A DNA stretch of 64,000 nt, taken from contig CAVPCG010000025.1 in assembly GCA_963702325.1 (NCBI GenBank), forward strand, positions 36,124 through 100,123. The letters run 5' to 3'. The notes beneath the pieces are model-generated. The model searched no databases. It was not told where the DNA came from and was given only the letters and a program-made list of their open reading frames with translations. The position numbers and the translations under genes were made by a program. Positions 651 through 63,352 of this stretch are shown piece by piece (within the stretch, counting starts at the first letter, position 1; every line of letters starts with the position of its first letter). Source of the DNA: an uncultured Acidobacteriaceae bacterium. Lineage in GTDB: Bacteria > Acidobacteriota > Terriglobia > Terriglobales > Acidobacteriaceae.

Positions 651-1424
651 CTACTTGCTCGCTGTCTGATTGGTTGGCTTCGTCACGATTTTGGCCAGCG
701 CTGCGGCGAGCTCATCTGACTTAAAACCAAATGGTCCCGGCTTGCTTTTGTAAGTAATCTTACCGTGCGGATCAATCACATACATGCGATCCGGCCAGCC
801 CGTATAGGCGCGTTCGGTGGAGTTACCAAACTCATCCAACACGGCGGGAAATTTCAAATTAAGTTTCCGTACACAAGCTCCGGCGATGGATGCTCTCTCT
901 TCTTCATCTTTTGGGGTGGCGAAAACAACTTTGTCTTTTATATTGCTCTGCATTTGCCACACGTCGCTTGGATGGGCTTCGGTGATGTAAACCACCAGGA
1001 ATGCGACGCGGTCATGATACTGCTCGTAGAGCTTATTGATAGCGGGAGCCTCCCGCCGGAATGGCGGTCAAGTATAGCTGCCGAAGACCAGCATAACCGG
1101 CTGCCGTTGATTCAACTCCGAAAGCCGGATGGTCCCACTCTTGTCCAACTTATTCAGCGAAAAGTCTGGAGCAGCGTCTCCCACATTGAGAGTTCCGGCG
1201 CGGGCGCGCGTCCATAATGTTTCAAATGGATAAAGCAAAAAAGGGACCGGACCGGGCATTTTCGCCATCACGCGCCCGAACTCTTCGGGAGGCTGATGCA
1301 TAGACCACCAGATGAATCCTCCAAATGCCAGGTAAATCACCAGCAGCCCAATTGAAACGCGAAGCAGTCGCCGTCGGGCAGTCGGACTCAATTTCCAGGA
1401 CGGAAGCGAAATTTTCCGAATCAT
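651..1424 (-). CDS. iodothyronine-deiodinase-like thioredoxin-fold protein with in-frame UGA at codon 119 (candidate selenocysteine) and an N-terminal TM anchor
   Basis: Track ORFs 1068..1424 and 651..995 are in the same frame and separated only by TGA 1068..1070. The joined protein reads ...QPVMLVFGSYT-U-PPFRREAPAINKLYEQYHDRVAFLVVYITEAHPSDVW...MYVIDPHGKITYKSKPGP. This matches the deiodinase active site FGS(C/A)T-U-PPF and the YIxEAHPSDGW motif. TM helix: LLRVSIGLLVIYLAFGGFIWW. The start overlaps the upstream stop as ATGA. Confidence 0.75.
1042..1067 (-). promoter_or_regulatory. candidate bacterial SECIS hairpin downstream of UGA 1068..1070
   Basis: mRNA reads UGA CCGCCAUUCCG GCGGGA-GGC-UCCCGC. 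A 6-bp GC-rich stem (1056..1051 pairing with 1047..1042) starts 11 nt after the UGA and carries a GGC apical loop about 20 nt from the U. An alternative CCGCC/GGCGG pairing overlaps it. Folded by eye only. Confidence 0.4.
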
Positions 1425-2002
1425 CTAGTTGCCACCGCCTGCAACGGCTGCTTCCGGTCGCGGCCTGCGTAGCCGAGTTGCGCCGTTTGCTTGCCAATTT
1501 CCCGGTACATTTCAGGATCGCGAGGCTGCCACGTGCCCAAACCATCCACGTACCGATTGAACATGCAGAAAGCCGCAGCGATCAATACCGTATCGTGGAT
1601 TTCTTTATCGGACGCTCCGCCCTCTCGAGCTCGCTCGACGTCTTGCGCGGTAACGTGCTTGCCGCCCTTCTGAACCTTCCCTGCAATATTTAGAAGTGCT
1701 TTCATCTTGTCTGAAACTTCGGCCGTCTCGAAGTTCTGTTTGACCTGACTAACCAATTCATAATCGGCCCCGCTGCCGCCAAGATGCTGTGCCGCCGTAG
1801 ATCCGTGACATGTCTGGCAGTAGTAACAGTCATTCTGAGAAGAAACATATGCCGCGATGATCTCGCGTTCGGCGGGAGTTAAGGTGTTTGGACCTCGCAA
1901 CAGAACCTCTGCCAGTTCGCACAGGGGTCTGGTGGTTGCTGGACTAAATGCGAGCGGCCCTCGAATGCCAGGAAGTTCTTCGGGAAGCTTGATATAAGCC
2001 AT
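1421..2002 (-). CDS. AhpD-like / carboxymuconolactone decarboxylase family peroxidase-related protein (Cys form, CxxC)
   Basis: Track ORF 1421..2032. Motif SSQNDCYYCQTCHGS (CxxC-xx-H of the AhpD core) and FNRYVDGLG near the C-terminus. I prefer the internal ATG at 2002 (MAYIKLPEE), which has a weak AGGA upstream. The stop overlaps the next gene start (ATGA). Confidence 0.75.
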   Translation of the reverse strand: MAYIKLPEELPGIRGPLAFSPATTRPLCELAEVLLRGPNTLTPAEREIIAAYVSSQNDCYYCQTCHGSTAAQHLGGSGADYELVSQVKQNFETAEVSDKMKALLNIAGKVQKGGKHVTAQDVERAREGGASDKEIHDTVLIAAAFCMFNRYVDGLGTWQPRDPEMYREIGKQTAQLGYAGRDRKQPLQAVATR

Positions 2003-2329
2003 TTGCAAGTCCTGCTTTGGAAGTAGTCCCATCCGGCCGCAAGCCGGGATGACAGCCAGACCACGTTAATCGTGGAGACATTCGCGAGCAATACTACAAA
2101 CAGATTACTGACCGCGGGCGATCCCACGCCTTCTTTTTGTCGGTCCCAACTTTTTTCGCGGGGTCTAATTGTTTTTCGTTATTGTGCTTCCGTCAGCGGG
2201 TAATTACTTTAGCGCATGTTTCGGCGCGGCCACCGGATCATTCACTGAAATCGGTAATCAAAGCCGTCACATGTTTTGAAGCACTTATCTGAAGATCTCG
2301 ATAAGCCGCTCGACATTCAGGAGGCGAAG

Positions 2330-2704
2330 ATGAAATTGAAGAACGTAGTGCGATTAGGATTTCTGTCCGCGTTTGCTTTCGTGCTGATAGCGGCCAGTGC
2401 AGATTCCGGCAAATCAATTGTAGTAAAAGGATACGTTCTTGATTCCGCATGCGCATTCACCAAAGGCCTGAAGAAGCCTATCAGCGCCGAATGTGCAACT
2501 GCATGCGCAAAGGCCGGGTCTCCGCTTGTAATCCTGTCAGACAGCGGGAAAATTTATTGGCCAATCGCCGATACCACACCCGCCAGCGGACAGAATGACA
2601 AGCTGCTGCCGTTCGCAGGGCAAAAAGTTACTGCCAGCGGAAAAACATTTCAGCGTGGCGGTTCGACCGCACTGGTGATCGAAAAAATCGAACCGCAGAA
2701 CTAA
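2330..2704 (+). CDS. small secreted Cys-containing hypothetical protein
   Basis: Track ORF 2276..2704. ATG 2330 is preceded by AGGAGG. Signal-peptide-like MKLKNVVRLGFLSAFAFVLIAASA. Four Cys (DSACAF, ECATACAKAG). No family recognised. Confidence 0.55.
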   Translation: MKLKNVVRLGFLSAFAFVLIAASADSGKSIVVKGYVLDSACAFTKGLKKPISAECATACAKAGSPLVILSDSGKIYWPIADTTPASGQNDKLLPFAGQKVTASGKTFQRGGSTALVIEKIEPQN

Positions 2705-2902
2705 ATCAGTCGTTCCATATCTGTCGTTTTTAATTCTTTTGAAAGAAAGAGGGGTATCCCTGGTCCTGATTCTGCTGGCCTTGGTAGCGTTGCGAAGTCC
2801 GCGGGGAAACCTTGCTCGGTGTCGCAGTGGTTCTCGCGGGATTGCCCGTTTACAGCTTGTTTCAGCGCAAGGTAACCTGAAAGCCAGAGGGAAGGATTGC
2901 AA

Positions 2903-3498
2903 ATGAACGAAGAGAATGCCATAAAACCCGCCACGAAAATCAAAATCATCGAAGACGCGGAAGCAACCGGCGAAACCGCCGCCGCCTACGATTTCTGGCG
3001 CAGTGGCTCAGGCAGGCAGCAAGTTCCCGGAATCATCAAGTGCTTCGGAGCGCGTCCTGATTTTTTGCGGCAAGTAGTCGAATTTTCAAACACCGTTCAC
3101 TTTTCCGAAGGGCATCTCTCTCGCCGCCACAAAGAGATGATCGCCAGCTACGTCTCTTACTTAAACCGGTGCCCATATTGACTGGACAGCCATGCCTACT
3201 TCCTGCGTGTTCAGGGAGCAACCGATCAATGCGTAGCGGCGATTTTCGAAGGCAGGCTGGATGACGCAGGCTTGACCGAGGCAGAGCGCGCCCTCTGAAT
3301 TACGCGGAGCTGATCACCGAAGCTGCTTACCGTTCAACGCCCGAAGACGTTGACAAGTTGCGAAATGCGGGCTGGAACGAAGATCAGATCGCAGAGGCCG
3401 TGTATGTCATCGCACTATTCGCTTTCTTCAATCGCGTCGCCGATGCCTTCGGCGTGCCCGCCCAGAACTATCTTGCCACCGGGAAAATGACCCCTTAG
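2903..3498 (+). CDS. AhpD-like / CMD family protein with in-frame UGA in a CxxU motif (candidate selenoprotein), plus an apparent 1-nt frameshift near 3295
   Basis: Track ORF 2897..3181 ends ...SYVSYLNRCPY at TGA 3179..3181. Reading continues in frame as LDSHAYFLRVQGATDQCVAAIFEGRLDDAGLTEAERAL, then TGA 3296..3298. The -1 frame continues LNYAELITEAAYRSTPEDVDKLRNAGWNEDQIAEAVYVIALFAFFNRVADAFGVP...TAG 3496..3498. NRCPY-U-LDSH aligns with NDCYY-C-QTCH of the paralog at 1421..2002. Confidence 0.7.
3197..3220 (+). promoter_or_regulatory. candidate bacterial SECIS hairpin downstream of UGA 3179..3181
   Basis: CUUCCUG-CGUGUU-CAGGGAG: 7 pairs (3199..3205 with 3212..3218, one G-U), with a 6-nt loop containing GU that lies 27-32 nt after the U of UGA. 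Folded by eye only. Confidence 0.35.
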
Positions 3499-3554
3499 CG
3501 CACAGCTAATGAGTCTGTGTGAGAACTCCTTGTTGCAATAAATGAGTGGAACGA

Positions 3555-3775
3555 ACTCTGCCAGAACCCAGCCCCGAAGGGGCGAATGAAAATAGCCCAG
3601 CGCTTCAGCGCTGGAAAAGCGGAAAAAATGATTCAAGTCCCGGAGGGACGGCTGAGTTCTAACACAGACTCTAAAGTCCCTCTGCGCAGGGGCAGGTGCT
3701 CTCACCTGCCCAGCCGAGCAAAGCTCGGCTTCCGGTATGTCGGCTCGCTTTCGATCAAAAAAACAACGCCCGATG
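3555..3775. repeat. mosaic of short GC-rich hairpin modules (intergenic)
   Basis: A chain of small palindromes: GCCCC-GAA-GGGGC, CCAGCGC-TTC-AGCGCTGG, GTCCC-GGA-GGGAC, CAGGTG-CTCT-CACCTG and AGCCGAGC-AAA-GCTCGGCT. The overlapping ORFs 3415..3831 and 3586..3795 are translations of these repeats. Confidence 0.5.
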
Positions 3776-3782
3776 ACATTCG

Positions 3783-4481
3783 CTATTTGGGCTGAGGAAC
3801 CACCCGCAAATACGGCTTCAACGTCTTCCAACCGGCGGGATACAACTTCTGCGCCTCTTCATTGGAAACCGCGCCGCTGATGATCACGTCATCGCCGGGC
3901 TTCCAGTTCGCCGGCGTAGAGACCTTGTGCTTGGTGGTCAACTGTAACGCATCGAGCACCCGCAGCACTTCGTCAAAGTTCCGGCCCGCGCTCATCGGAT
4001 AGATGAGCTGAAGTTTAATTTTCTTGTCGGGGCCAACCACAAACACCGTACGCACGGTGGCATTGTCGCTCGGTGTGCGACCTTCAGAAGTAGTCCCGCT
4101 CGACGCCGGCAACATGCCGTAGAGCTTCGCCACTTTCAGTTCCGGATCACCAATCATCGGATAATTCACCTTGTGACCCTGCGTCTCTTCGATATCGAGA
4201 GCCCACTTGCTGTGACTGCTAACAGGATCAACGCTGAGTCCGATGATCTTCGTATTCCGTTGTGCGAATTCGGGCTGAAGTCCCGCCATCGTCCCAAGTT
4301 CGGTTGTGCAAACGGGAGTGAAATCTTTCGGGTGAGAAAACAAAATCGCCCATCCATCGCCGATCCATTCGTGAAAGTTAATCTTCCCCTGCGTGGTATC
4401 GGCGGTGAAATCAGGGGCCGTGTCATTGATGCGAAGCGCTGGCGCTTGGGCGGTCGGAGTTGCTGTATCTGTGCTCATCAT
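3783..4481 (-). CDS. 1-Cys peroxiredoxin (Prx6-like)
   Basis: FSHPKDFTPVCTTELG peroxidatic-Cys motif with a single conserved Cys. Full-length 232 aa ORF. GAGGAGAG RBS upstream. Confidence 0.9.
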   Translation of the reverse strand: MMSTDTATPTAQAPALRINDTAPDFTADTTQGKINFHEWIGDGWAILFSHPKDFTPVCTTELGTMAGLQPEFAQRNTKIIGLSVDPVSSHSKWALDIEETQGHKVNYPMIGDPELKVAKLYGMLPASSGTTSEGRTPSDNATVRTVFVVGPDKKIKLQLIYPMSAGRNFDEVLRVLDALQLTTKHKVSTPANWKPGDDVIISGAVSNEEAQKLYPAGWKTLKPYLRVVPQPK

Positions 4482-4925: not shown

Positions 4926-7892
4926 TTGATGTGCTGGCTTACCGATTGCGTCGTACTCCGAAAGTATTGTTTACATGTGTCTTTCCTTGTCGTCTTGGCC
5001 ATTTTCGCTGGCCGCGTGGCTGCCCAGGCTCCCGACACAGCAACTCTCAAAGGGCAAATAAGCGATCAGAGCCATGCCGCGGTACCGGGCGCTGAGATCA
5101 TGCTCAAGGGAACGCTCACGAGCCTCGAGCGCAATGCGCACTCAGATTCGTCTGGGAACTTCAGCCTGTCCGGCTTGGCAATCGGTCAATATGCACTGAC
5201 TGTGCGCAAGGAGGGCTTTGCAAATGCGAGCCAGACCCTGACGCTTGTCGCCGGAACTACGGCCGATCTTAAGATTCAACTCAGTGTTTCGGCCGTACAA
5301 ACGCAGATTCAGGTGACCGGAACGGCCGGGGAAGTTCGCAGCGACGAGCCCCAACTTGGCGATCGTTTGAGTTCAGCAGAGGTGCAGGAATTGCCGCTGC
5401 TAAACCGGAGGATTACGTATCTGCCCCTGGTGAATGCGGCGAACCACCCGGCGCTGAACCAGGGCGATGTCTTCATGAACCAGGATCTTTTTGCGACGAA
5501 TGGCTCAGGACGCCGGCAAACGTCGTGGGTGGTGGATGGCAGCACGGGAAACGACAGTTGGGGAAGGCAGACAATTTTCACCAACGTCCCGCGAGAGGCC
5601 GTGGAGGAGATGACCGTACTCGAGAACGCGTTTTCAGCCGAATACGGCGCAACTACTGGCGGTGTGGTAAATGTCGTCACCAAAACAGGCGGCGATGAAT
5701 ATCACGGAGACCTACTCGGAATGTGGCGGCCAAACGGTACCGCTGCCAGGCTCGCGGGCTTCACCCCAAACAATGCGACCAGCGGCAACCAGATCGTCAG
5801 CGATTCGTTAGGCCAGACGGGAGCTTCGCTTGGCGGGCCGGTGCCCGGCAGCGACCGCACTCACTTTTTCTTTGCCGGTGAGTATAGTCACGAAGATCGC
5901 GGCTCCCCGGTAACGTCCCCACTCGAACCCAGCGTTTTCGTCGGGCATTATACCGATTGGATGACCTTTCTTCGCATTGACCATCGCATCAGCGATGCGA
6001 ACGCACTCTTCTTGCGGGCGAATACTGACAGCTTCCATGACACCGACCCCAACGGCACCGTGGGTGGAAACAGCCTGCCGACCGTGGATCGAATCTTCCG
6101 CCGGCGGACGTATTCTCTGGAGCTTGGCGACACGGCCATCCTCTCGCCATCGTGGCTCAACACCGCCCGTGCTCAATTCCAACTTGCTTCGCCAATCACG
6201 GAATTCGATCCCGTCATTTTCGGAACCCAATTTATCGTGCCGATCACTCAGGGTGGAACGTTTACCAGCGGAACCTCGCAGTCGGCGCTGCTTCTCAATC
6301 GCCAGTATGATTTCAATGACACGGTGGCGGCAAATTGGAACCAGCACCAATTCAAGTTCGGCGCTGATGTCGTGCACTCTCACAGCGGAGGGAACAGCAA
6401 GGAATTTGGTGGTCCCTTCTTCCTGGGACAGCTCACCTACAATCCGTGCAATCTGGGGCTTGCCCAATGCGAAAGCTCGGCCTATCTAGGCAATATCGCC
6501 AACGTGGCGAGCTACAACCAGAGCTACGGCAACGCCAGTTACACCGTGGACGATACGATCTGGGCGCTCTTCGCGCAGGACAACTGGAAAATCCGCCGCG
6601 ATCTGACGCTCGATTTGGGGCTGCGCTATGAGCAGCAGACGTTTACCGATTCCCGCAAGGATTTTGCGCCCCGACTCGGCTTTGCCTATGACTGGCAGGA
6701 CCGCGGCACCACTGTCATCCGTGGCGGGTTCGGAATCTATTACTCACAGATGGTGGACAATGCTGCCGCGAATTATGCGCTCAGCGGGCCCACCGGCTTT
6801 TTCAATTTTTCCGCGGGCCCGGGCCAAGTCGGATTCCCGGCAAGTGTGTCGGACGTACCGCTGCCGGCCTTTCCTCAGGGGGCTGTCGCACCCGTACGCA
6901 GTATTTACATCCGGCCTGGGCGAGCCGCGTTCTATAACCAGTTTTTCGATACCTCGTTGCTTATTCGATATCCAGATGCGTTGCTCAATCCATCCTCTGA
7001 GCAATGGACTTTTGGCGTCCAGCGGCAACTCGGGAAAGGCTGGGTGCTCAGTGCGGATTACGTGGGATCGCATGCCATCCACGTGTTGCGGCCGCTCGAC
7101 GTGGATCCTCCGTCGCCTTTCGTTCGCACCGCCCAGGGGCAAACTCGCAGCGCACAGGCAGCGAACTGCACGCGTCCCCTGTGGATTGCGTTCTATGAAG
7201 CCGCGGGGCGCACCTGCAACCCCAGCGCGGCGAATCCGCCCCAACCCGCATACGGTGTGATTCAAACGGACGTGAACGACGGTTACGCCCGCTACAACGC
7301 GCTGGATCTCAATCTCAGTCACCAGTTCGCGCGCCGCTTCGCTATGCTCGCGAGCTATGTGTACTCGCACGCGATTGACAACGTTGATCCCGATGTTCCT
7401 GGCCAAAATCCGAACGATCCGAATTTCACCGGAAAACAAGAAGAAGGCAACGCGATTTTCGATGAGAGGCACCGCTTCGTGCTCAGCGGCACATATCATG
7501 CTCCGCTTGGTTTGGATTTCGGCGGAATTGCCACACTCGCTTCGGGCCTGCCCTTCAACTATGTGACCGGATCAACCAACAGTGGTGACACCGGCGGGAC
7601 CACAGATCGTCCGGTAATCAATGGCGTGGTGGTCGGGCGCAACACCGGGCGAGGAAACGCGATCTATGATTTTTCGCCATTCCTTGAGAAGTCGTTCAGG
7701 CTCACGGACCGATTTCGAATACAGGGCCGCGTCGAATCCTTCAACGTGTTCAATCACTCGAATTTTGTCGGCTATAACAGCACCTTCGGCAACCAGGCCA
7801 CGTCGAGTGCCGCTCTCGGGCTGCCTCTCACTGGAATCACGAACCAACTGCCCGCTCGCTCGCTACAGTTTATGGTGCGATTGGTGTATTGA
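4926..7892 (+). CDS. TonB-dependent outer-membrane receptor with N-terminal carboxypeptidase-regulatory-like domain
   Basis: 988 aa. Signal peptide ...LAIFAGRVAAQAP. CarboxypepD_reg-like segment (GQISDQSHAAVPGAEIMLKG...GNFSLSGLAIGQYALTVRKEGF). Plug/barrel-type sequence (VLENAFSAEYG, GGVVNVVTKTG). C-terminal aromatic residue. The ATG at 4929 is equally possible. Confidence 0.85.
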   Translation: MMCWLTDCVVLRKYCLHVSFLVVLAIFAGRVAAQAPDTATLKGQISDQSHAAVPGAEIMLKGTLTSLERNAHSDSSGNFSLSGLAIGQYALTVRKEGFANASQTLTLVAGTTADLKIQLSVSAVQTQIQVTGTAGEVRSDEPQLGDRLSSAEVQELPLLNRRITYLPLVNAANHPALNQGDVFMNQDLFATNGSGRRQTSWVVDGSTGNDSWGRQTIFTNVPREAVEEMTVLENAFSAEYGATTGGVVNVVTKTGGDEYHGDLLGMWRPNGTAARLAGFTPNNATSGNQIVSDSLGQTGASLGGPVPGSDRTHFFFAGEYSHEDRGSPVTSPLEPSVFVGHYTDWMTFLRIDHRISDANALFLRANTDSFHDTDPNGTVGGNSLPTVDRIFRRRTYSLELGDTAILSPSWLNTARAQFQLASPITEFDPVIFGTQFIVPITQGGTFTSGTSQSALLLNRQYDFNDTVAANWNQHQFKFGADVVHSHSGGNSKEFGGPFFLGQLTYNPCNLGLAQCESSAYLGNIANVASYNQSYGNASYTVDDTIWALFAQDNWKIRRDLTLDLGLRYEQQTFTDSRKDFAPRLGFAYDWQDRGTTVIRGGFGIYYSQMVDNAAANYALSGPTGFFNFSAGPGQVGFPASVSDVPLPAFPQGAVAPVRSIYIRPGRAAFYNQFFDTSLLIRYPDALLNPSSEQWTFGVQRQLGKGWVLSADYVGSHAIHVLRPLDVDPPSPFVRTAQGQTRSAQAANCTRPLWIAFYEAAGRTCNPSAANPPQPAYGVIQTDVNDGYARYNALDLNLSHQFARRFAMLASYVYSHAIDNVDPDVPGQNPNDPNFTGKQEEGNAIFDERHRFVLSGTYHAPLGLDFGGIATLASGLPFNYVTGSTNSGDTGGTTDRPVINGVVVGRNTGRGNAIYDFSPFLEKSFRLTDRFRIQGRVESFNVFNHSNFVGYNSTFGNQATSSAALGLPLTGITNQLPARSLQFMVRLVY

Positions 7893-11991: not shown

Positions 11992-12066
11992 GCGGGAGTA
12001 GCTCAGTGGTAGAGCGCGACCTTGCCAAGGTCGATGTCGCGGGTTCGACCCCCGTCTCCCGCTCCA
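11992..12066 (+). tRNA. tRNA-Gly (anticodon GCC), CCA encoded
   Basis: Manual cloverleaf: acceptor GCGGGAG/CTCCCGC, D arm GCTC-AGTGGTA-GAGC, anticodon arm CGACC-TTGCCAA-GGTCG and T arm GCGGG-TTCGACC-CCCGT. Confidence 0.9.
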
Positions 12067-12122
12067 ATTTCTTGTGTAAATGTCAGCAAGTTATGCGTTT
12101 GCAAGAATTAAGTGGATGGTAA

Positions 12123-12197
12123 GGCGCGGTACCCAAGTGGTAAGGGAGAGGTCTGCAAAACCTTTATGCGTGAGTTCGATTCTCACCCGCGCCTCCA
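12123..12197 (+). tRNA. tRNA-Cys (anticodon GCA), CCA encoded
   Basis: Manual cloverleaf: acceptor GGCGCGG/CCGCGCC, anticodon arm GAGGT-CTGCAAA-ACCTT and T arm GTGAG-TTCGATT-CTCAC. Confidence 0.9.
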
Positions 12198-53809: not shown

Positions 53810-55762
53810 ATGTGCGGGATTGCGGGAGTAGTCGAGTTCGGCGGGCGCACCGAGGTTGATCCTCAAGTGCTTCGACGGATGTGCGCCGCGATGGTGCACC
53901 GCGGCCCTGACGACGAAGGCATTCACGCCGAAGGCCGGATTGGGCTGGCGATGCGGCGGCTCAGCATTATAGACGTCGCGGCCGGGCATCAGCCCCTTAG
54001 CAACGAGGATGGCACAGTTTGGATCGTCTTCAACGGCGAAATTTACAATCATGCAATTTTGCGCGAGCAATTGCTCGCACGAGGACATCAATACCGCACG
54101 CATTGCGATACCGAAACAATTGTTCACCTCTATGAAGAGTATGGACGCGATTGCGTGCAACATTTGCGGGGGATGTTCGCATTCGCGATTTGGGATTCGA
54201 ACCGGCGAAGCTTATTCGTGGCGCGTGACCGGTTGGGAATCAAGCCGCTCTATTACCGTTTGGCCCCTGACTCATTTCTCTTTGGTTCCGAAATAAAGGT
54301 TATTCTCGCGCATCCCGCGGCGGAGGCCAAGTTTCGCCGAGCGGCGCTTCCCGAATATCTGGCCTTTGGATATCTCTCCGGGCGGGAGACTTTCTACGAC
54401 GGGATCCTCAAGCTCATGCCGGGACACACGCTTGAACTCAGCGAAAACGGCGAGGTCAAAATAGAGCGGTATTGGGATTTGCGACTGACCGGGGATGTTC
54501 CTTCTTATTCCGAAGACGACTACGTCCGGAAATATCGCGAGATGCTGGAGGAGGCCGTCAGCAGCCAGCTGATGAGCGATGTGCCGTTAGGAGTGTTTCT
54601 GAGCGGCGGCCTGGATTCGAGCGCGGTTGCCGCGCTGATGACAAAAATACGGCGCGCGCCTGTCGAAACATTTTCGGTTGGGTATTCGGAACACGCATAC
54701 AGCGAACTGCCCTACGCTCGAACGGTGGCGAAGCACTTGAATTCGAATCACCATGAAGTCTCGGTAAGCCGTGAGGATTTTTTCGGCGCGCTACCCAACC
54801 TGATATGGCACGAGGATGAACCCATCACGTGGCCATCGAGCGTGGCACTGTATTTCGTTGCGAGACTGGCGAGCGAGCATGTGAAGGTTGTGCTAACGGG
54901 AGAAGGCAGCGATGAAACTCTCGGAGGCTACACGCGGTATGCGTTTACACGGCGGAATGCTGCGTTTGACCGCGTATATCGAAAACTGCTGCCGGCAAAT
55001 TTGCGGAAACAGATTCGTAAATCAATCTCGAATTCGGATCTAATCGGCGCCACGGTTCGGAGAAAACTTTCGCATACTTTCCTGGCGTTGGATGGAGACT
55101 CGTGGCCGTCGTTTTATTTCGATAACTTTTATTCAGCTTTTGACTCCGGGGAACAGAGGGAACTGCTTACCGAAGAGTTCACCGGAGAACTTTCTGAGGG
55201 CGCAGCTTATCGCAACGTTCTCAAGGATTGGGAAGCTTCCTCGGGCGACATGCTGCAACGACTGCTTTACACGGACATCAAAACTTATCTTGTCGAACTG
55301 CTGATGAAACAGGACAACATGAGCATGGCGGCTTCCATCGAGAGCCGCGTGCCGTTCCTTGATCATGTTCTTGTAGAATTCGCCGCCAATATTCCTGCGA
55401 AATTCCAACTCCGGGGCATGGCGGGGAAACATATATTGAAAAAAGCTGTCGAGGACTTGCTGCCACATTCGATTATTTACCGTCCGAAGCTGGGTTTTCC
55501 AACGCCCTGGAGTGGATGGCTAGCCGGAGAGCAGTTGGATGCTATTGAGAAGATGCTTTTGGAACCGCGCAGCATGAACCGTGGATTCTTTGAGAGAGAC
55601 GCCATCGAGCGATTGTTTCGGGAACACCGGACACGACGACGGGACAACTATGATCGCATCTGGCGATTGCTGAATTTGGAATTGTGGCAGCGAGTTTGCG
55701 TGGAGAGGGACTCGCATGATTTTGCAGTTGAGACGGCAGTTATTTCCGTCCGCAATATTTAA
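53810..55762 (+). CDS. asnB: asparagine synthase (glutamine-hydrolysing), EPS-locus-type amidotransferase
   Basis: N-terminal nucleophile MCGIAG, the GATase II domain and the PP-loop SGGLDSS. 650 aa. Confidence 0.85.
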   Translation: MCGIAGVVEFGGRTEVDPQVLRRMCAAMVHRGPDDEGIHAEGRIGLAMRRLSIIDVAAGHQPLSNEDGTVWIVFNGEIYNHAILREQLLARGHQYRTHCDTETIVHLYEEYGRDCVQHLRGMFAFAIWDSNRRSLFVARDRLGIKPLYYRLAPDSFLFGSEIKVILAHPAAEAKFRRAALPEYLAFGYLSGRETFYDGILKLMPGHTLELSENGEVKIERYWDLRLTGDVPSYSEDDYVRKYREMLEEAVSSQLMSDVPLGVFLSGGLDSSAVAALMTKIRRAPVETFSVGYSEHAYSELPYARTVAKHLNSNHHEVSVSREDFFGALPNLIWHEDEPITWPSSVALYFVARLASEHVKVVLTGEGSDETLGGYTRYAFTRRNAAFDRVYRKLLPANLRKQIRKSISNSDLIGATVRRKLSHTFLALDGDSWPSFYFDNFYSAFDSGEQRELLTEEFTGELSEGAAYRNVLKDWEASSGDMLQRLLYTDIKTYLVELLMKQDNMSMAASIESRVPFLDHVLVEFAANIPAKFQLRGMAGKHILKKAVEDLLPHSIIYRPKLGFPTPWSGWLAGEQLDAIEKMLLEPRSMNRGFFERDAIERLFREHRTRRRDNYDRIWRLLNLELWQRVCVERDSHDFAVETAVISVRNI

Positions 55763-56964
55763 TTGGGCTGCTGTGTTTTTCTCGCCGATTCCAATACTTC
55801 ACCGAATTTTTTCGCAATGACAGACCAATCATATTTCCTGGCCGTTTCGGAGGCGGCATGCTCGTAACGCTGTCGAAGGTCAGGGTCTTTTAGAAAAGAT
55901 ACAACGGCATTGGCAAACTCACGTGGATCGTCCGCAATCACAATATCGCGGCCCGGGGAGATATCTAAACCTTCAGCGCCGACGGTGGTGGAGACGACGG
56001 CTTTGCCGGCGGCCATGGCTTCATAAATTTTCAAGCGTGTTCCTCCGCCGACGCGCAATGGGACGATCACGACGGCTGCTTTTTGCAGGTAGTCCGCCAC
56101 GGATTCGACGCGGCCGGTGATTTCAATTGAATTGGAAGCCAACTTCCGCACACGGCGATCTGGATTGCGGCCTACGATGCAGAATTGGGCGCCAGGAACG
56201 GCGGCCACGATTGTGTTCCAGATCTCGCCGGCAAAAACTTCCACGGCGTCAATATTCGGCTCCCAATCCATCGCGCCGACGAACATCACTATCGGGGCGG
56301 TATTCCGATGATCCGAGGTGGGCTGATACTGTTTTACGTCAACACCCGTCGGCACGACCGTGATACCGGAGGAGGTCCATGCTCGCATGAGGTCTCGGTC
56401 GTGATCCGAAACGGTAATGACGTGCTGAAACTTTCGAAGGGCGTTTTGCTCATAGCGCAGCATTTTTTGGAATTCAAACTTATAAATGAGGCGCTTGACG
56501 GGATTGGTCTCTGTTGCGGCGTGACGCCGCCAAATCTCGCTTTCCACGTTGTGCTGGAAGAGAACCGCCGGAACCGCCATCTGGTGCGGCAGATTTATCG
56601 CAGCATCGAGGAAGTCGGCGATGACTACGTCGAAAGAGCCAGTCTCCAAAAGAGCATTTATTTTTGCTTTCACGAGTGGCGAGGCGAATCTGCTCACGGC
56701 GTAGGGTGCTGGCGAGGACAATTTGAGCAAGTAATCTGACATGCGCGAAATGAAGGTCGCGCTTTTGCCGGTGTGCAGGGCAGTCGAGGACGGAAAATAA
56801 TTGCTTAATTCGGCAGCATATGTTTTGTCTTCCGCGCCGTCGTAGTACGAGAGAAATGTAACGTCATTGCCGGAAGATAAGTGTTTCAGGATTTGAAATG
56901 AGCGGATGTCTCCTCCGCTGTGGAGGGGCAGGAGCTTGTTAGCCTTGATCCAAAGAATCTTCAT
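55759..56964 (-). CDS. glycosyltransferase family 4 (GT-B fold)
   Basis: C-terminal half with GGTRLKIYEAMAAGKAVVST (EX7E-type motif). 401 aa. Confidence 0.8.
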   Translation of the reverse strand: MKILWIKANKLLPLHSGGDIRSFQILKHLSSGNDVTFLSYYDGAEDKTYAAELSNYFPSSTALHTGKSATFISRMSDYLLKLSSPAPYAVSRFASPLVKAKINALLETGSFDVVIADFLDAAINLPHQMAVPAVLFQHNVESEIWRRHAATETNPVKRLIYKFEFQKMLRYEQNALRKFQHVITVSDHDRDLMRAWTSSGITVVPTGVDVKQYQPTSDHRNTAPIVMFVGAMDWEPNIDAVEVFAGEIWNTIVAAVPGAQFCIVGRNPDRRVRKLASNSIEITGRVESVADYLQKAAVVIVPLRVGGGTRLKIYEAMAAGKAVVSTTVGAEGLDISPGRDIVIADDPREFANAVVSFLKDPDLRQRYEHAASETARKYDWSVIAKKFGEVLESARKTQQPN

Positions 56965-57036
56965 CGTCTCGACGGATCCCAGTCAGAGGGCGGCCTGCGA
57001 AGGCTTACAGGTAATGCGATCCAGGCCCGATTTGTT

Positions 57037-58188
57037 TCAGCGAATCCAGGCCGCTTTTTTCCCAGTGATGAAATTCGTAAAGGCGATAAAAGCGGCGGTG
57101 TTGAGTACGACAAAAGTGAATGAAGCGTCCGCGATTCTCGCTATGGGCCCACGCTTGAACTGGGCGAGCGAAAGCAGGCTGAGTGTATAGAATCCCAGTT
57201 GCGATATCAGGGCGACGCGATAAACAAGCCCTTGCAGGAAAATGGAAGACACAAGAGCCGCGACCAAAGTGAAGGGGGCAACGAGCCGCAGAAGTTTGTG
57301 GCTTATGAACTCGAAGCGAATCGGATTTGAGCTTGTAAGCAACCACGGCGCGAGTTGTACCAGTTGGTAATTGCCGGTTAAGGTTCTTACTTTGCGGGCG
57401 AACTCGCGAGTCACTCCCAAGTTTGGCACGTCCCACGCGATGGCGCGAGAATCAAAAACCACCCGGAATCCCTGGCGTGCGACATTCATGGGAATGTAGA
57501 CGTCGTCGAGGATGGTTTCAGAAGGGACAGGTGCGAGCAAGCTGCGTCTTGCGGCGTAGAGCGCACCGGTGGCGCCGACGACTGATCCGGATGCGGACTC
57601 CATTTCGCGGATGCTCTTCTCGATGCGCCAATACAAACCCATTCCCTTAGCGGTTTCGCCGGATTCGGGATCGCCCAGCATGAGTTCTCCGCTGGCACAA
57701 CCGACTTCGGGATCGGCAAAGTTTTCGGCGAGAAAGCATATTGCGTTCGGCTCGATGGTTTGGCGGGCATCGGTGAAAACGACAATTTCGCCCTTTGCGG
57801 TTGCAATCGCGTCATTCAGGCAGGCGGATTTTCCACGAGAGTCCGGGCAAAGGATTGTGTGGGCTATGAAATTATTCGAACCGGAATTATTTGAGCCGGA
57901 ATTATTTGACCATTGAGACAGAATTTGATTGGTCGCGTCGGCGGAGCCGTCCGATACGACGATAATTTCACGCTCGCCTTGGGGATAATTCAGGTCCATC
58001 AAATTCTGTAGCTTCGCTTCGAGGACATCAGCTTCGTTGCGAACCACCATTACGAATGAAACTGTAGGAGTGTGTGGCGCCCGCCTGATGGGCCGGCGAC
58101 GCCAATAATTGCGAAGCCACAGCCATCCTGGATAACCGGCGTAGGTGTATGCGATGACTCCAACCGATCCCCAGAACAACCATTTCAT
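57037..58188 (-). CDS. glycosyltransferase family 2 (membrane-associated)
   Basis: VSFVMVVRNE...IIVVSDGSADAT...FTDARQ (DxD-type) and C-terminal TM helices. Contains the SNNSG repeat insertion. Confidence 0.8.
   Translation of the reverse strand: MKWLFWGSVGVIAYTYAGYPGWLWLRNYWRRRPIRRAPHTPTVSFVMVVRNEADVLEAKLQNLMDLNYPQGEREIIVVSDGSADATNQILSQWSNNSGSNNSGSNNFIAHTILCPDSRGKSACLNDAIATAKGEIVVFTDARQTIEPNAICFLAENFADPEVGCASGELMLGDPESGETAKGMGLYWRIEKSIREMESASGSVVGATGALYAARRSLLAPVPSETILDDVYIPMNVARQGFRVVFDSRAIAWDVPNLGVTREFARKVRTLTGNYQLVQLAPWLLTSSNPIRFEFISHKLLRLVAPFTLVAALVSSIFLQGLVYRVALISQLGFYTLSLLSLAQFKRGPIARIADASFTFVVLNTAAFIAFTNFITGKKAAWIR
57871..57909 (-). repeat. in-frame 15-nt tandem repeat (about 2.6 copies) inside the GT2 gene
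   Basis: Minus strand TCAAATAATTCCGGC TCAAATAATTCCGGT TCGAATAAT encodes SNNSG-SNNSG-SNN. Confidence 0.8.
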
Positions 58189-59558
58189 TGCGCGCCCCGT
58201 CCGAGCAGGACGATCTTGATGGTTTGAAACATGATGAAGACGTCCAAGCCGAGAGAAGCGTTCTTAATGTAGAAAAGATCGTATTGAAGCTTTTCTCTGG
58301 CGTCCTCAATCGTGTTGCCGTATTTGTAGCGAACCTGCGCCCAACCCGTGATGCCCGGGCGAACCATGTGGCGAACGCCATAGTAAGGAAGCTGTTCCGT
58401 GAGCCACTCGACAAACTCGGGGCGTTCGGGGCGAGGGCCTACGAAAGCCATATCGCCTTTGAGGACGCACCACAGTTGCGGGATTTCATCCAGCCGCGAC
58501 GTGCGGAGAAATTTTCCGATGCGGGTGATGCGAGGATCATCGTCCAAGGCCCAGGTGGGTCCGGTATCGGCTTCAGCGTCCTGGCGCATGGTGCGGAACT
58601 TGTAACAATAGAAAGTTTCTCCACCACGGCCGGTGCGCTTCTGGCGGTACAGGATAGGACCTGGCGAATCGAGTTTGATGGCAAGCAGGACGAATGGCAT
58701 TAGCGGCAAGGTGAGGAGAAGCCCAAGTAAGGCTGCCGAAAATGCAAGCAGGCGGCGGAAGATGCGAAACGCACTGCTAAAACGAAAGCCCTGAGCGAAG
58801 ATGATCCAACTGGGATAGAGGTTTTCGACTTCAATTCTGCCGGAAATTTTTTCCAGCCAGGTGGTGGCCTCTTCGATGTGCACGCCGCGGAGACGGAGTC
58901 TTAAAAGTTCTTCCATGGGCGTGGCTTCGCGGCGGTCCTGCATTGCGACAATGACGCGGTGCACGCTGGTTTGCTGAACCATGTCTGTCAGGTGCGCCCC
59001 CATCGTCTGGCGGTTCAATGGGCCCTGCACGTTGCCGCTCCACCCAATGACATCCGCGCCCAGTTCAGAGCGCGCTCGCAATCCTTGAACAAGTCTCTGC
59101 GCCCGTTCACCACCCCCCAGTACGTACACCTGTTCTCGCAGATATGGTTTCTTCGCCAGCCAAGAGTAGATAGTTCTCCAACACAACAAAGCGATGGTCA
59201 GAAAAATCAGTCCCACAAGGAACGATGATTTCCCCAACATAATGCTCGGAAACACTGCTTCCGCCACGGCCAATGCGAGAGCGATTACCCCGGGAACAAG
59301 TAAAAGCCGGAAATAGAGTTCCCCCTTGGCGTCAAAGTGAGTTGGATCATAAAGGTCGCACAAATGCGAGATAACAAGCACAAGAGCAGTAAGGCCGACA
59401 ATTTTTAGATAGCCGCCCTCATAGTTGAGGACGATATAGCTGTCATCAGGGTGCTGGAGCAGCGTGGCCAGAAGGAAAGACATCCATATAATCAGCGCCT
59501 CACCCAACAATAAAATGAGGGTGCGCGCCGGATAATAAACTTTGAAGATGCGGATCAA
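58185..59558 (-). CDS. polyprenyl-phosphate glycosyl-1-phosphate transferase (bacterial sugar transferase, EPS initiating enzyme)
   Basis: N-terminal TM helices plus a CoA-binding-like region. C-terminal KLDSPGPILYRQKRTGRGGETFYCYKFRTM...DEIPQLWCVLKGDMAFVGPRP. Confidence 0.85.
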   Translation of the reverse strand: MIRIFKVYYPARTLILLLGEALIIWMSFLLATLLQHPDDSYIVLNYEGGYLKIVGLTALVLVISHLCDLYDPTHFDAKGELYFRLLLVPGVIALALAVAEAVFPSIMLGKSSFLVGLIFLTIALLCWRTIYSWLAKKPYLREQVYVLGGGERAQRLVQGLRARSELGADVIGWSGNVQGPLNRQTMGAHLTDMVQQTSVHRVIVAMQDRREATPMEELLRLRLRGVHIEEATTWLEKISGRIEVENLYPSWIIFAQGFRFSSAFRIFRRLLAFSAALLGLLLTLPLMPFVLLAIKLDSPGPILYRQKRTGRGGETFYCYKFRTMRQDAEADTGPTWALDDDPRITRIGKFLRTSRLDEIPQLWCVLKGDMAFVGPRPERPEFVEWLTEQLPYYGVRHMVRPGITGWAQVRYKYGNTIEDAREKLQYDLFYIKNASLGLDVFIMFQTIKIVLLGRGAQ

Positions 59559-59559
59559 G

Positions 59560-60480
59560 CTATTTCTTCGCTCCGGCGCGGGCTTCGTTACCGTAGGCTG
59601 CGTAGTAATACTTACTATAGGAAGTTCCGCCGTCCACGCCGTTCAGGACAATGCCGACCAGGGCGGTATTTTTGAATTCCATTCTGGCTTTTCGTGCGAC
59701 ATCAAAGGGTGTTTCGTTGGAGCGGACGACCATGAGCACGCCGTCACAGCATTTGGCGAGCAGAGCAGCGTCGGAAATGGGTACTGCCGGGGGGGCATCC
59801 ACGATGATCCAATCGAAGAGCGATTCCAAACGGTTGAGAAGAGAGTTGAGACGGCCATTGGCAAGCAGTTCGGCCGGATTCGATACCATGCGGCCCGCCG
59901 GAATAAAGAATAAGTTCTCCATAGGCCCGCGTTGCATGATGGCGAATTCATCATTCTCGCCCAGTAGATATTCGGCCAGGCCCGGGGTCGCATTGGTTCC
60001 CAAACTTCGGTGCAGTTGCGACGCCCGCAGGTCGGCGTCAATCAAGAGAGCCTTGCGCCCATGCTGCCGCACCATAGCCTGGGCAAGATTGGAAGAGACA
60101 AACGACTTTCCTTCCTGTGGCAGGGCGCTGGTTACCAGCAATTTTTTTAGTGGTTGTCTTTCGCGAATCTGATAAAGCCGTGAACGGAGGGTTCTGAATT
60201 CTTCAGTGCCAAAAGCCTGTTCGTCCTCATTGAAAAATAACATCGTTCCAGGTTCTGGCGCCCACTTGCTTTCAACGGTGCGTGTTAGCAATACGTCCTG
60301 AGCTGACGAAGCATTGAACTGGCCCGGCACATTCTGCGGAATGGGTGAACGGGAGTCGGACGGCGACTGAGGAATTGGACTGTGCGGAAGCACCTCAGGG
60401 TTAACTTCAACGTAAATTGTTTGCTGCGATGCGGCGCGCTCGTCCTCCGCCTTCTTTAAAGCTTCGTGGATCCGGCTCAT
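59560..60480 (-). CDS. BY-kinase-like tyrosine autokinase/ATPase (chain-length regulator partner)
   Basis: Walker A LLVTSALPQEGKS, A' LLIDADLR and B IIVDAPP. C-terminal Tyr cluster YSKYYYAAY. Confidence 0.75.
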   Translation of the reverse strand: MSRIHEALKKAEDERAASQQTIYVEVNPEVLPHSPIPQSPSDSRSPIPQNVPGQFNASSAQDVLLTRTVESKWAPEPGTMLFFNEDEQAFGTEEFRTLRSRLYQIRERQPLKKLLVTSALPQEGKSFVSSNLAQAMVRQHGRKALLIDADLRASQLHRSLGTNATPGLAEYLLGENDEFAIMQRGPMENLFFIPAGRMVSNPAELLANGRLNSLLNRLESLFDWIIVDAPPAVPISDAALLAKCCDGVLMVVRSNETPFDVARKARMEFKNTALVGIVLNGVDGGTSYSKYYYAAYGNEARAGAKK

Positions 60481-61742
60481 ATTTTCCTTTCCTTCGGGCC
60501 TTTTTGTTCTGGCTCGCGCAATCGGTCGGCGAGATTGGCGAGAGTCTTCAAAGCGTCCACCAAATCAAATCTTTCAGTTGACGACGCCGCTGGCGAGGCC
60601 TCCGAAGGGGATGGGGGTACCGGCGCAGGCTCGGGCGACGAATTTCGCAATGCGACTAGTGGCGTGGCTGAGGTTGGAGCGGAGGAAAAATCGTCAGCGG
60701 CCGGTGTTGACATAGAGTTATCTGTAACTGGTTTCGAAGTGACGCGTGACACGGGAGCAAAATCCCTGCGTGGGTAGGAGAGGGACGTCTTCGGCGAATC
60801 CGCATCAAGAACTGTGCTTTTCTCTACGGAGATAGGTGGAGTCTTCGCGATTGGCGGAGCGGCAGCTTCATGCGAAGGGCTTTCAGACAAGGAAACGGGC
60901 TCGGCGGATAAGGCCATTCCAGAAACCGGGTTATCAATCAGATCGAAATCCCGGGCAACCACTTCGACCACGCTCGCGGTTACTGTTCTCTGCTGATCCA
61001 CAAAAGCGCTCACAAGACAATGCTCGCAAATCAGATTGACGACACGAGGAATTCCGCAAGAATAACGGTGAATTGCGACCAGCGACTCCGGCTCGAAAAT
61101 GGCCTGCCCATTCCAGCCCGCAATGCGAAGTCTCTGAGCCACATAAGACTTGGTTTCCTCGGAGGTCAGCGGATAAGTTTTTGCCCGCAGAGTGAGCCGT
61201 TGACGCAATTGCCGAAGATTCGGCTGCTTCAACTTCTGCTCCAGTTCTGGTTGGCCGACCAGAACGATTTGTAAAAGCTTCTCGGTGAAAGTCTCGAGGT
61301 TGGTCATCATGCGGATTTCCTCAAGCAATTCTTCGGAGAGACCCTGAGCTTCATCCACGATCAGTACGGCGGTTTCGCCGGCGCGATAGCGATCGAGAAG
61401 CCAGTTATAGAGACGCAATAAAATCTGGCTCTTCGACCTGGTGTCCGAGGGGATGCCAAAATCGGCCATCATGTAGTCGAGGAATTGCGAAACATTCAGC
61501 CGGGAATTGAAAACGAAAGCGGTTGGCACTTGCTGAACGCGCAACCATTCCAACAATTTATTGATGAGCGTGGTCTTGCCAGTCCCGACTTCACCGGTGA
61601 GCAATACAAAACCCTTGCGGCTTTGAATACCGTAAGTAAGACAGGCCAGTGCTTCCTCAGTATGCCGCGTTAGAAATAAATAACGCGGATCCGGGTTGAC
61701 GTTGAAAGGGTTGGCTCGTAATCCGAAGAATGCCTTATACAT
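60477..61742 (-). CDS. ExeA/GspA-like AAA ATPase of PEP-CTERM-type EPS loci, with long Pro/Ser-rich C-terminal tail
   Basis: Walker A LTGEVGTGKTT and Walker B VLIVDEAQ. About 150 C-terminal residues are low-complexity P/S/A-rich. Confidence 0.7.
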   Translation of the reverse strand: MYKAFFGLRANPFNVNPDPRYLFLTRHTEEALACLTYGIQSRKGFVLLTGEVGTGKTTLINKLLEWLRVQQVPTAFVFNSRLNVSQFLDYMMADFGIPSDTRSKSQILLRLYNWLLDRYRAGETAVLIVDEAQGLSEELLEEIRMMTNLETFTEKLLQIVLVGQPELEQKLKQPNLRQLRQRLTLRAKTYPLTSEETKSYVAQRLRIAGWNGQAIFEPESLVAIHRYSCGIPRVVNLICEHCLVSAFVDQQRTVTASVVEVVARDFDLIDNPVSGMALSAEPVSLSESPSHEAAAPPIAKTPPISVEKSTVLDADSPKTSLSYPRRDFAPVSRVTSKPVTDNSMSTPAADDFSSAPTSATPLVALRNSSPEPAPVPPSPSEASPAASSTERFDLVDALKTLANLADRLREPEQKGPKERKI

Positions 61743-61748
61743 GGGTAG

Positions 61749-63311: not shown

Positions 63312-63352
63312 CTTGTGTTCCCGTTCTGGCTGCCTTCCGGCGGCCTGAAGAA

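Follow-up and report, generated by a model that had tools for sequence, protein, structure and literature searches.

The window analyzed here is a 64-kb stretch of DNA from an uncultured Acidobacteriaceae bacterium (contig CAVPCG010000025.1), and near its left end, on the minus strand, lies a gene for a deiodinase-like protein that is interrupted by a single in-frame TGA codon. The minus-strand open reading frames (ORFs) 1068..1424 and 651..995 share a common frame, and translation of the whole interval 651..1424 gives 257 codons followed by a TAG stop, with the TGA at 1068..1070 as the only internal stop. The codon stands in the context ...QPVMLVFGSYT-stop-PPFRREAPAINKLYEQYHDRVAFLVVYITEAHPSDVW..., which reads FGSYT-U-PPFRRE if UGA is translated as selenocysteine (Sec, U). 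An earlier note on this DNA had described this arrangement of the frame and had predicted that gene callers would split the gene. Both statements hold, as a standard ORF listing breaks the gene into two pieces at the TGA and half-length fragments are found in protein databases. Two genes for AhpD-like proteins and a peroxiredoxin gene lie close by (Table 1).

We assembled 161 related DNA loci from three sources: a scan of GTDB with one genome per species, which gave 80 loci at 65-86% identity, all from metagenome-assembled genomes of Terriglobia/Acidobacteriota; the best 80 soil-metagenome contig loci from a scan seeded with an alignment of Cys-type homologs; and one JGI contig (L167). Codon 119 is TGA in 161/161 of these loci (80/80 genomes, 80/80 metagenome contigs and the JGI contig), and among the 80 genome loci the context FGSYT-TGA-PPFR is invariant. 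The metagenome scan had been aimed at Cys-type loci, yet its best 80 loci were all TGA forms instead. In every locus the frame remains open for ~130-140 codons past the TGA, and the relatives are 72-88% identical to the window protein after the TGA, compared with 55-85% before it. The ratio of nonsynonymous to synonymous divergence (dN/dS) against five relatives is 0.03-0.10 after the TGA and 0.06-0.17 before it, at a dS of ~1-3; the half after the TGA is conserved at least as strongly as the half before. The earlier note had also considered that orthologs might simply end at the TGA and lack the C-terminal half, an idea that does not survive the finding of an open, conserved frame in all loci.

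These data bear directly on the possibility that the UGA is a true stop, in which case the locus would be a disrupted pseudogene, or else 1068..1424 and 651..995 would be small genes in their own right. The splitting of the locus in the standard ORF listing, the many half-length database entries and the failure to see Sec machinery in the window are all as this explanation would have it. However, the same TGA persists in 161/161 loci that have diverged to a dS above 1, strong purifying selection acts on the half past the TGA in the same frame as the half before it, the catalytic fold runs across the codon (see below), and there are homologs with Cys at the site. We regard a true stop as exceedingly improbable and, judging from these alignments, neither a truncating stop nor a sequencing error can give the observed pattern of a conserved TGA with conservation downstream of it.

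In protein databases the family appears in four forms: N-terminal fragments (...FGSYT), C-terminal fragments, full-length proteins with Trp (W) at the Sec position, and homologs with Cys there. The full-length W proteins are products from JGI metagenomes, number in the dozens and are labelled "peroxiredoxin". The DNA of one of them was checked (L167, 311..1021) and its codon is TGA; the W entries are TGA rendered as Trp on short JGI contigs. Other residues also occur at the site in a few database entries (R in P0050 and P0062, G in P0064). About 21 homologs, more distant than the others, make up the Cys form; their identity to the window protein is 29-54%, they share the FGSYTCPPFRRE context, their motifs are FGSYTCPPF or FGN(F/Y)TCGPF, and the codon in DNA is TGC or TGT. 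Fifteen are stand-alone proteins (42-54% identity) and six are EF-hand or TPR fusions (29-36%). Inspection of the Cys/Sec column in orthologs, which had been recommended in the earlier note, finds TGA in 161/161 loci and Cys in ~21 homologs. The Cys-type domains with N-terminal EF-hand repeats (FGNFTCGPF) are P0090, P0104, P0105 and P0111, the last three of which have no equivalent of the cysteine found at residue 184 of the window protein; P0093 and P0097 are fused to TPR repeats. Both architectures are unlike the membrane-anchored form encoded in the window.

The classification of the product as deiodinase-like rests on both sequence and structure comparisons. T4_deiodinase (PF00837) is its best Pfam family (105.1 bits against a cutoff of 27, E=4.8e-30, profile positions 74-235 of 237), and the closest solved structures are mouse Dio3 (4TR3) and Dio2 (9H48), both found in a sequence search of the PDB with E ~2e-19 and ~30% identity. 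The UGA aligns with the catalytic Sec of both (Dio3 Sec170, Dio2 Sec130; Cys in the crystallised mutants), so that the stop does sit at the Sec position of vertebrate deiodinases. The Pfam families AhpC-TSA (PF00578; 52.5 against 26 bits) and Redoxin also score above their cutoffs, more weakly than T4_deiodinase. The active-site signature of peroxiredoxins is P-x3-T/S-x2-C; the window protein has Ser at -3 and Leu rather than Pro at -7, and the Dio models score far higher. The NCBIfam model NF038285 (deiodinase_rel) gave 203 bits, below its cutoff of 250, with only model positions 177-341 of 347 covered, and the ResA model gave 46.8 bits against a cutoff of 170, the window protein having neither CxxC nor UxxC (U-P-P-F, with residue 184 as its sole Cys). 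For the fold comparison, an AF2 model of a naturally Cys-containing homolog (P0037, 53% identity, pLDDT 94.8) stood in for the window protein. Dio2 was the best match of this model, with a target-normalised TM-score of 0.83, and Dio3 the second best, with 0.80; oxidoreductases of the ResA/DsbE type and AhpE/Bcp peroxiredoxins came next.

The residues conserved across the family include Ser116, Thr118, Tyr146, Glu149, His151 and Trp156, a Ser/Thr/Tyr/Glu/His/Trp set that in deiodinases forms the proton relay and the edge of loop D (Steegborn and colleagues, PMC11592359). The YIxEAHPSD..W block, which the earlier note had likened to deiodinases, reads YITEAHPSDVW and aligns with Dio3 and Dio2, and Y146, E149, A150, H151 and W156 are invariant in an alignment of 36 sequences. 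A cis-Pro motif (WP211xR) and the motif KSxPGPFGF are also conserved in the family, and Cys184 is kept in at least 90% of homologs of both the Sec and the Cys type, being missing only in the EF-hand fusion subgroup. The likeness to vertebrate deiodinases is incomplete, because the equivalents of Dio2 His182 and Dio3 Arg275 are Pro. Specifically, Pro171 replaces Dio2 His182 (proton relay; Dio3 His219) and Pro229 replaces Dio3 Arg275 (the proposed clamp for the substrate carboxylate); both replacements extend across the family, so that the full set of Dio proton-relay and thyronine-binding residues is not found here. Dio3 Cys239 corresponds to Phe. Taken together, the conservation on both sides of the codon and the fold that spans it establish that selection maintains in-frame read-through of the UGA and that the product is a deiodinase-fold protein with a recoded residue at its catalytic position.

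The nucleotides that follow the UGA carry a further constraint. A GC-rich hairpin had been proposed ~11 nt past the codon, and it is present: its core, GCGGGA-GGC-UCCCGC, occupies 1042..1056, and one added G-U pair lengthens the stem to 7 bp (GGCGGGA-GGC-UCCCGCU, 1041..1057) and places its start 10 nt after the UGA. In the 81 orthologs compared, synonymous variation drops sharply over codons +4 to +10. Arg+4 is CGG in 78/81, Arg+5 is CGG in 79/80, Glu+6 is GAG in 80/80, Val+7 is GUU in 64/67, and Pro+8 is CCC or CCU only; synonymous entropy is 0-0.3 bit at codons +4 to +7, compared with 1.5-2 bits for the same amino acids elsewhere in the gene. The consensus helix found with RNAalifold falls on exactly these synonymously constrained nucleotides. 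In a test with 150 sequences (137 distinct), in which alignment columns 17-23 pair with 27-31 and 33-34, C32 is bulged and the loop is G24-G25-Y26, paired cells make up 98.5% of the helix and loop positions G24 and G25 are invariant. Pair 18-33 is C-G in 63 sequences, G-C in 55, G-U in 14 and unpaired in 5. Since both partners are third-codon positions (Arg+4 and Ala+9), this covariation is not imposed by the protein. Where residue +9 has changed to Glu or Val, the position of the bulge shifts and G33 is retained. None of 500 shuffles, and no slid register, reached the observed helix values. We dropped a continuous 7-bp register for the family in favor of the RNAalifold register with the bulged C32, because only in the latter do the CGC...GCG variants form a C-G pair; the window sequence itself is compatible with both.

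We consider this feature to be beyond chance because of the TGA in 161/161 loci, the synonymous collapse at +4 to +10 and the covarying pair. In position, size and its GG-bearing apical loop the predicted hairpin matches the criteria of the Gladyshev group for the bacterial selenocysteine insertion sequence (SECIS), among them a small, G-containing apical loop (Zhang, Fomenko and Gladyshev 2005). As a control we used five distinct Cys-type genes, four of which encode the same peptide region without the helix. The fifth belongs to the closest Cys-type relative (L161 5325; P0037, contig ERZ25039518:contig_1705); downstream of its TGC it retains 6/7 pairs together with the GGC loop, apparently a fossil SECIS left by a recent Sec-to-Cys replacement. 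An AhpD/CMD-like gene lies just upstream of this Cys-type gene in L161.

The hairpin is also pertinent to a second alternative, namely that the UGA is decoded, but not as Sec: as Trp or Gly under a reassigned code, as Cys by a tRNASec-like tRNACys, or as Ser or another residue by an allo-tRNA. JGI pipelines gave W at the codon, allo-tRNAs of a suppressor-like kind occur in Acidobacteria and SelB-dependent tRNACys(UCA) in other phyla (Mukai et al.), and no tRNA-Sec was found in the window or in 160 loci. However, the genetic code is not reassigned, because TGA ends ordinary genes in the window: it terminates 20 of 56 long ORFs, including lolD, pepQ, pilM and EpsB, whose profile matches are complete to the end. 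A hairpin that is conserved and covaries, at the spacing of a SECIS, points to decoding through SelB. The codon occupies the family's redox-active Sec/Cys position, and selC* tRNACys has been reported from other phyla rather than from Acidobacteria (Mukai et al.). Acidobacteria include Sec users, and one carrier of an ortholog, Occallatibacter riparius DSM 25168, has been classed as Sec-utilizing under a criterion that asks for either SelB or SelA plus SelD. We judge decoding as a residue other than Sec to be very improbable.

A scan of the window for further genes with an in-frame TGA gave no convincing case other than the deiodinase-like gene and an AhpD-like gene at 2897..3498. The AhpD-like gene belongs to another known selenoprotein family (CxxU) and lies 1.5 kb from the deiodinase-like gene. 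Its reconstructed product scores 103 bits against TIGR01926 (cutoff 81.8) and has the motif NRCPY-U-LDSH, and intact orthologs with the same TGA are present at five loci (L033, L038, L042, L044 and L064). Relative to these five, the window copy has a 1-nt deletion and its frame shifts after ...LTEAERAL, which reflects either a sequencing error or a pseudogene. This gene also has a candidate SECIS of its own (CUUCCUG-CGUGUU-CAGGGAG, at 3199..3218).

The deiodinase-like protein was expected from the earlier note to have a single N-terminal transmembrane anchor, and a hydrophobic segment at residues 20-42, with a hydropathy of 2.13, agrees with this. A comparable N-terminal segment is found in 79/80 orthologs, and a single long helix stands at the N-terminus of the AF2 model of a homolog. 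The flanks of the anchor carry a net charge of +7 before and are neutral after it; by the positive-inside rule this places the N-terminus inside and the catalytic domain outside the cytoplasmic membrane. We therefore predict that the catalytic domain faces outward.

We consider it highly probable that 651..1424 on the minus strand is a genuine Sec-decoded deiodinase-like gene, and several observations weigh against that conclusion. With regard to the machinery, we found no selA, selB, selD or tRNA-Sec in the 64-kb window or in 160-166 loci. ARAGORN and Rfam detected no tRNA-Sec in the window, nor did ARAGORN in 160 loci. NCBIfam gave no Sec-machinery match for the ten window ORFs of SelA, SelB or SelD size (ffh, accC, EpsB, an AsnB-like gene, a Ser/Thr kinase, pilM, pepQ, an ATPase and two unmatched), and tblastn with approximate E. 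coli SelD and SelB queries found no match in the window and 166 loci, a weak null given the approximate queries and the shortness of the loci. With regard to the hairpin, a single-sequence fold of the 66 nt past the UGA is not beyond chance (z = -0.92), the minimum-free-energy structure of those 66 nt is another hairpin (CCGCC/GGCGG), Rfam returned no SECIS or other family match for the hairpin at E <= 10 beyond chance hits, and the covariation is limited to pair 18-33, the remaining pairs being set by the encoded peptide. With regard to biology, a domain predicted to be extracytoplasmic is hard to reconcile with the signal-less AhpD-like neighbor as a direct partner, the frameshift in the AhpD-like selenoprotein gene, if real, could hint at decay of selenium use in the lineage, and we found no 75Se, mass-spectrometry or activity experiment in the literature on this clade. 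The competing CCGCC/GGCGG hairpin was examined across the family and rejected, as its 10-18 pair is broken in 64/137 distinct sequences and it shows no covariation.

The features of the locus are collected in Table 1. In the orientation of the deiodinase-like gene, the window order is dapA, deiodinase-like (Sec), AhpD-like (Cys), a small secreted ORF, AhpD-like (Sec), Acido-Lenti-1 RNA, peroxiredoxin and a divergent gene for a TonB-type outer-membrane protein (OMP).

Table 1. Features of the deiodinase-like selenoprotein locus (window positions).
Feature	Position	Strand	Remarks
Deiodinase-like selenoprotein coding sequence (very probable)	651..1424	-	257 residues including Sec119; ATG 1422..1424; stop TAG 651..653
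UGA codon 119, read as Sec (FGSYT-U-PPF; very probable)	1068..1070	-	TGA in 161/161 loci; Cys in distant homologs
Bacterial SECIS-like stem-loop, 5'-GGCGGGA GGC UCCCGCU(A)-3' (predicted)	1040..1057	-	Comparative evidence; apical loop GGC 1048..1050
N-terminal transmembrane anchor, residues 20-42 (predicted)	1299..1367	-	Kyte-Doolittle 2.13 over 19 residues; +7 flank before
Y146-I-T-E149-A-H151-P-S-D-V-W156 block	957..989	-	Alignment to 4tr3 and 9h48; proton-relay and loop-D edge residues
Cys184, sole cysteine of the protein	873..875	-	Candidate resolving Cys (putative role)
AhpD/CMD-like gene, Cys form (CYYC)	1421..2032	-	TIGR01926 90.2 against cutoff 81.8 bits; Pfam CMD
142-residue ORF	2276..2704	+	N-terminal hydrophobic segment, several Cys, no family match
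AhpD-like selenoprotein gene, C-P-Y-U	2897..3498	+	TGA 3179..3181; 1-nt deletion near 3293..3296
Acido-Lenti-1 RNA (Rfam RF01687)	3570..3615	-	55 bits against gathering score 37
Peroxiredoxin gene	3783..4481	-	NCBIfam PRK13189 E=1.6e-59; 200.8 bits, just under cutoff 211

Translational coupling of the selenoprotein gene to an AhpD-like gene had been claimed for this locus, and the overlap is indeed present, the TGA stop of the AhpD-like gene and the ATG of the selenoprotein gene sharing ATGA at 1421..1424. The coupling is local only, with an AhpD1-type gene directly upstream in 4/80 genomes. Of the 80 loci, 2 have a Sec-type AhpD gene directly upstream and 5 more have one at a distance of up to 6 kb. 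Because the neighborhood varies and the predicted topologies do not agree, we rejected the general rule that AhpD is a dedicated partner. On two metagenome contigs, L122 (~8634) and L155 (~8558), an AhpD-like gene of another type, also with an in-frame TGA (NRCVY-U-IESH), is found ~4 kb from deiodinase-like genes. In L001, the closest relative (86% identity), the deiodinase-like gene is flanked by dapA downstream and, immediately upstream, by the peroxiredoxin gene; given this adjacency, the window block ~1421..3780 is an insertion relative to L001. This extra block holds the AhpD-like gene, the small secreted ORF and the AhpD-like selenoprotein gene. In L062 and L080, homologs of the 142-residue ORF (66-69% identity) immediately precede the deiodinase-like gene. 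The Acido-Lenti-1 RNA, ~170 nt downstream of the peroxiredoxin gene and before the AhpD-like selenoprotein gene, fits an acidobacterial origin.

The commonest neighbor of the deiodinase-like gene encodes a ~1,140-residue outer-membrane beta-barrel protein (PF25183 OMP_b-brl_4 plus CarboxypepD_reg, TonB-dependent-receptor-like). In 47/80 genomes such a gene is found upstream in the same orientation (for example L031, 2516..6016), and in ~15 it is the immediate neighbor; the window homolog, at 4926..7892 (+), is divergent and 3.5 kb from the deiodinase-like gene. The association could be functional or merely inherited synteny. Elsewhere in the window are genes for tRNA-Gly and tRNA-Cys (11992..12197) and an unrelated XrtA/PEP-CTERM exopolysaccharide cluster at 53810..63446 (amidotransferase-like protein, TIGR03013 glycosyltransferase and system-associated ATPase).

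If the gene is Sec-decoded, as is highly probable, a mechanism can be outlined, of which the recoding step has good support. Ribosomes reaching UGA119 would not terminate; instead, the hairpin 10-11 nt downstream, with its G+C-rich stem of 6-7 bp and apical (A)GGY(U) loop of the bacterial SECIS type, would recode the codon by binding SelB-GTP-Sec-tRNASec, which would deliver Sec, a mechanism borrowed from the E. coli fdhF paradigm. The N-terminal signal-anchor helix would hold the thioredoxin-fold catalytic domain outside the cytoplasmic membrane. There, Sec119 would act as the nucleophile beside the Ser116/Thr118/Tyr146/Glu149/His151/Trp156 network. Substrate would oxidize Sec119, the invariant Cys184 would resolve the product to a selenenylsulfide, and a thiol reductant would recycle it, amounting to peroxiredoxin-like catalysis. 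This specific chemistry (Sec119 as nucleophile, resolution by Cys184, recycling by thiol) is put forward tentatively, as one possibility among others.

With regard to substrate, we rate halogenated aromatics below a peroxide or some other redox compound. A peroxidase or redox role is favored because the neighbors in the window are peroxide-related, and thyroid-hormone-like substrates are unlikely because the His and Arg equivalents are missing. The alternative that the protein is a reductive dehalogenase, acting on iodinated, brominated or chlorinated soil phenolics at the outer face of the inner membrane, with the TonB-type OMP perhaps importing the substrate, can be argued from several observations. 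Sequence and fold are nearer to Dio2/Dio3 than to any peroxiredoxin or ResA, the Dio-type Ser/Thr/Tyr/Glu/His/Trp network is retained, and Sec is kept in all 161 DNA loci, when replacement of Sec by Cys costs Dio ~1000-fold in activity (PMC11592359); the ~1,140-residue OMP gene, moreover, is a frequent neighbor. On the other side, Pro171 and Pro229 stand in place of Dio2 His182 and the Dio3 clamp residue Arg275, the window neighbors are peroxide-related (two AhpD-like genes and a peroxiredoxin), OMP genes of this kind are very numerous in Acidobacteria, such that the association may be inherited synteny, and the literature holds no dehalogenation assay for any bacterial member. We regard dehalogenation as unlikely and retain it as a minor candidate because of the closer kinship to Dio, the TGA in 161 loci and the linkage to the OMP gene. 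A broader version, in which the Terriglobia clade would constitute an outward-facing, anchored selenoenzyme for Sec-dependent dehalogenation, or some other reaction incompatible with Cys, on OMP-imported phenolics, seems a shade less likely still. If true, thyroid-hormone deiodinase chemistry would have a counterpart, and perhaps its evolutionary origin, in a bacterial enzyme of soil organohalogen turnover.

From the Sargasso Sea, Zhang, Fomenko and Gladyshev (2005) described Sec-containing deiodinase-like proteins, along with their Cys homologs and bacterial SECIS elements, and considered the bacterial function to be probably redox and not thyroid-related. Reviews of the prokaryotic selenoproteome from 2022 and 2026 list the deiodinase-like family as well as AhpD-like CxxU proteins, and the deep-Sep Data S1 (2025) assigns three known selenoproteins, AhpD-like, deiodinase-like and FdhA, to O. 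riparius. The O. riparius orthologs are 65% (AhpD-like) and 53% (deiodinase-like, over 239 residues) identical to the products of the window genes. The family has therefore been known since 2005, acidobacterial orthologs have already been published as selenoproteins, and the gene studied here is a new member. What we add is incremental and leaves a specialist's existing picture unchanged: the TGA in 161/161 loci, the SECIS covariation (one pair), the predicted topology, Cys184 as a candidate resolving residue and the OMP adjacency. For annotation, the locus should be entered as one selenoprotein with a transl_except at 1068..1070 instead of two hypothetical fragments; public protein databases contain many mistranslated copies, with W at the Sec site or at half length, and the same applies to the AhpD-like gene 2897..3498. 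The details given here concern the soil acidobacterial clade.

Compared with the prokaryotic deiodinase-like family, the window protein shares PF00837, an in-frame UGA at the catalytic position, Cys homologs and a bacterial SECIS immediately downstream. It resembles the O. riparius protein in FGSYTUPPFRRE, YIxEAHPxDVW, the N-terminal anchor and the conserved Cys. The representatives chosen in the reviews (for example the marine MBO99264.1) are more distant and have a UxxC motif (FGSITUSEC), whereas the acidobacterial clade has UPPF, as in vertebrates, and its sole Cys 65 residues downstream. The collections searched do not contain the window gene itself.

In E. coli fdhF the SECIS is a short, A-U closed hairpin rich in G+C, which has one bulged nucleotide and whose small apical loop opens with GG(U). 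The predicted element resembles it in a G+C-rich, A-U closed stem from 10-11 nt past the UGA, a GG loop and one bulge. It differs in its bulge, where a 3'-side C (column 32) takes the place of the 5'-side U, and in its loop of 3-5 nt (GGY or AGGYU); binding by SelB is predicted.

With vertebrate Dio1-3 the protein has in common a single N-terminal anchor, a thioredoxin fold with the deiodinase insertion, Sec in the same alignment column and the motifs FGS-x-T-U-PPF and Y-I-x-E-A-H-P-S-D-x-W. Unlike the vertebrate enzymes, it has its SECIS as a bacterial hairpin inside the coding sequence instead of an element in the 3' untranslated region, it has its own conserved Cys184, its catalytic domain is predicted to lie outside the cytoplasm, and no thyronine substrate is expected. 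Finally, ResA/TlpA/DsbE and the 1-Cys or atypical peroxiredoxins (AhpE, Bcp) are the next-best structural matches after Dio2/Dio3, and ResA-type proteins share an N-terminal anchor and an outward-facing domain. Both groups differ from the window protein, which has U-P-P-F in place of CxxC and contains the deiodinase insertion; their E-values are more than 5 orders weaker than that of Dio2 (3.9e-15) in the fold search and ~15 orders weaker than those of Dio in the sequence search.

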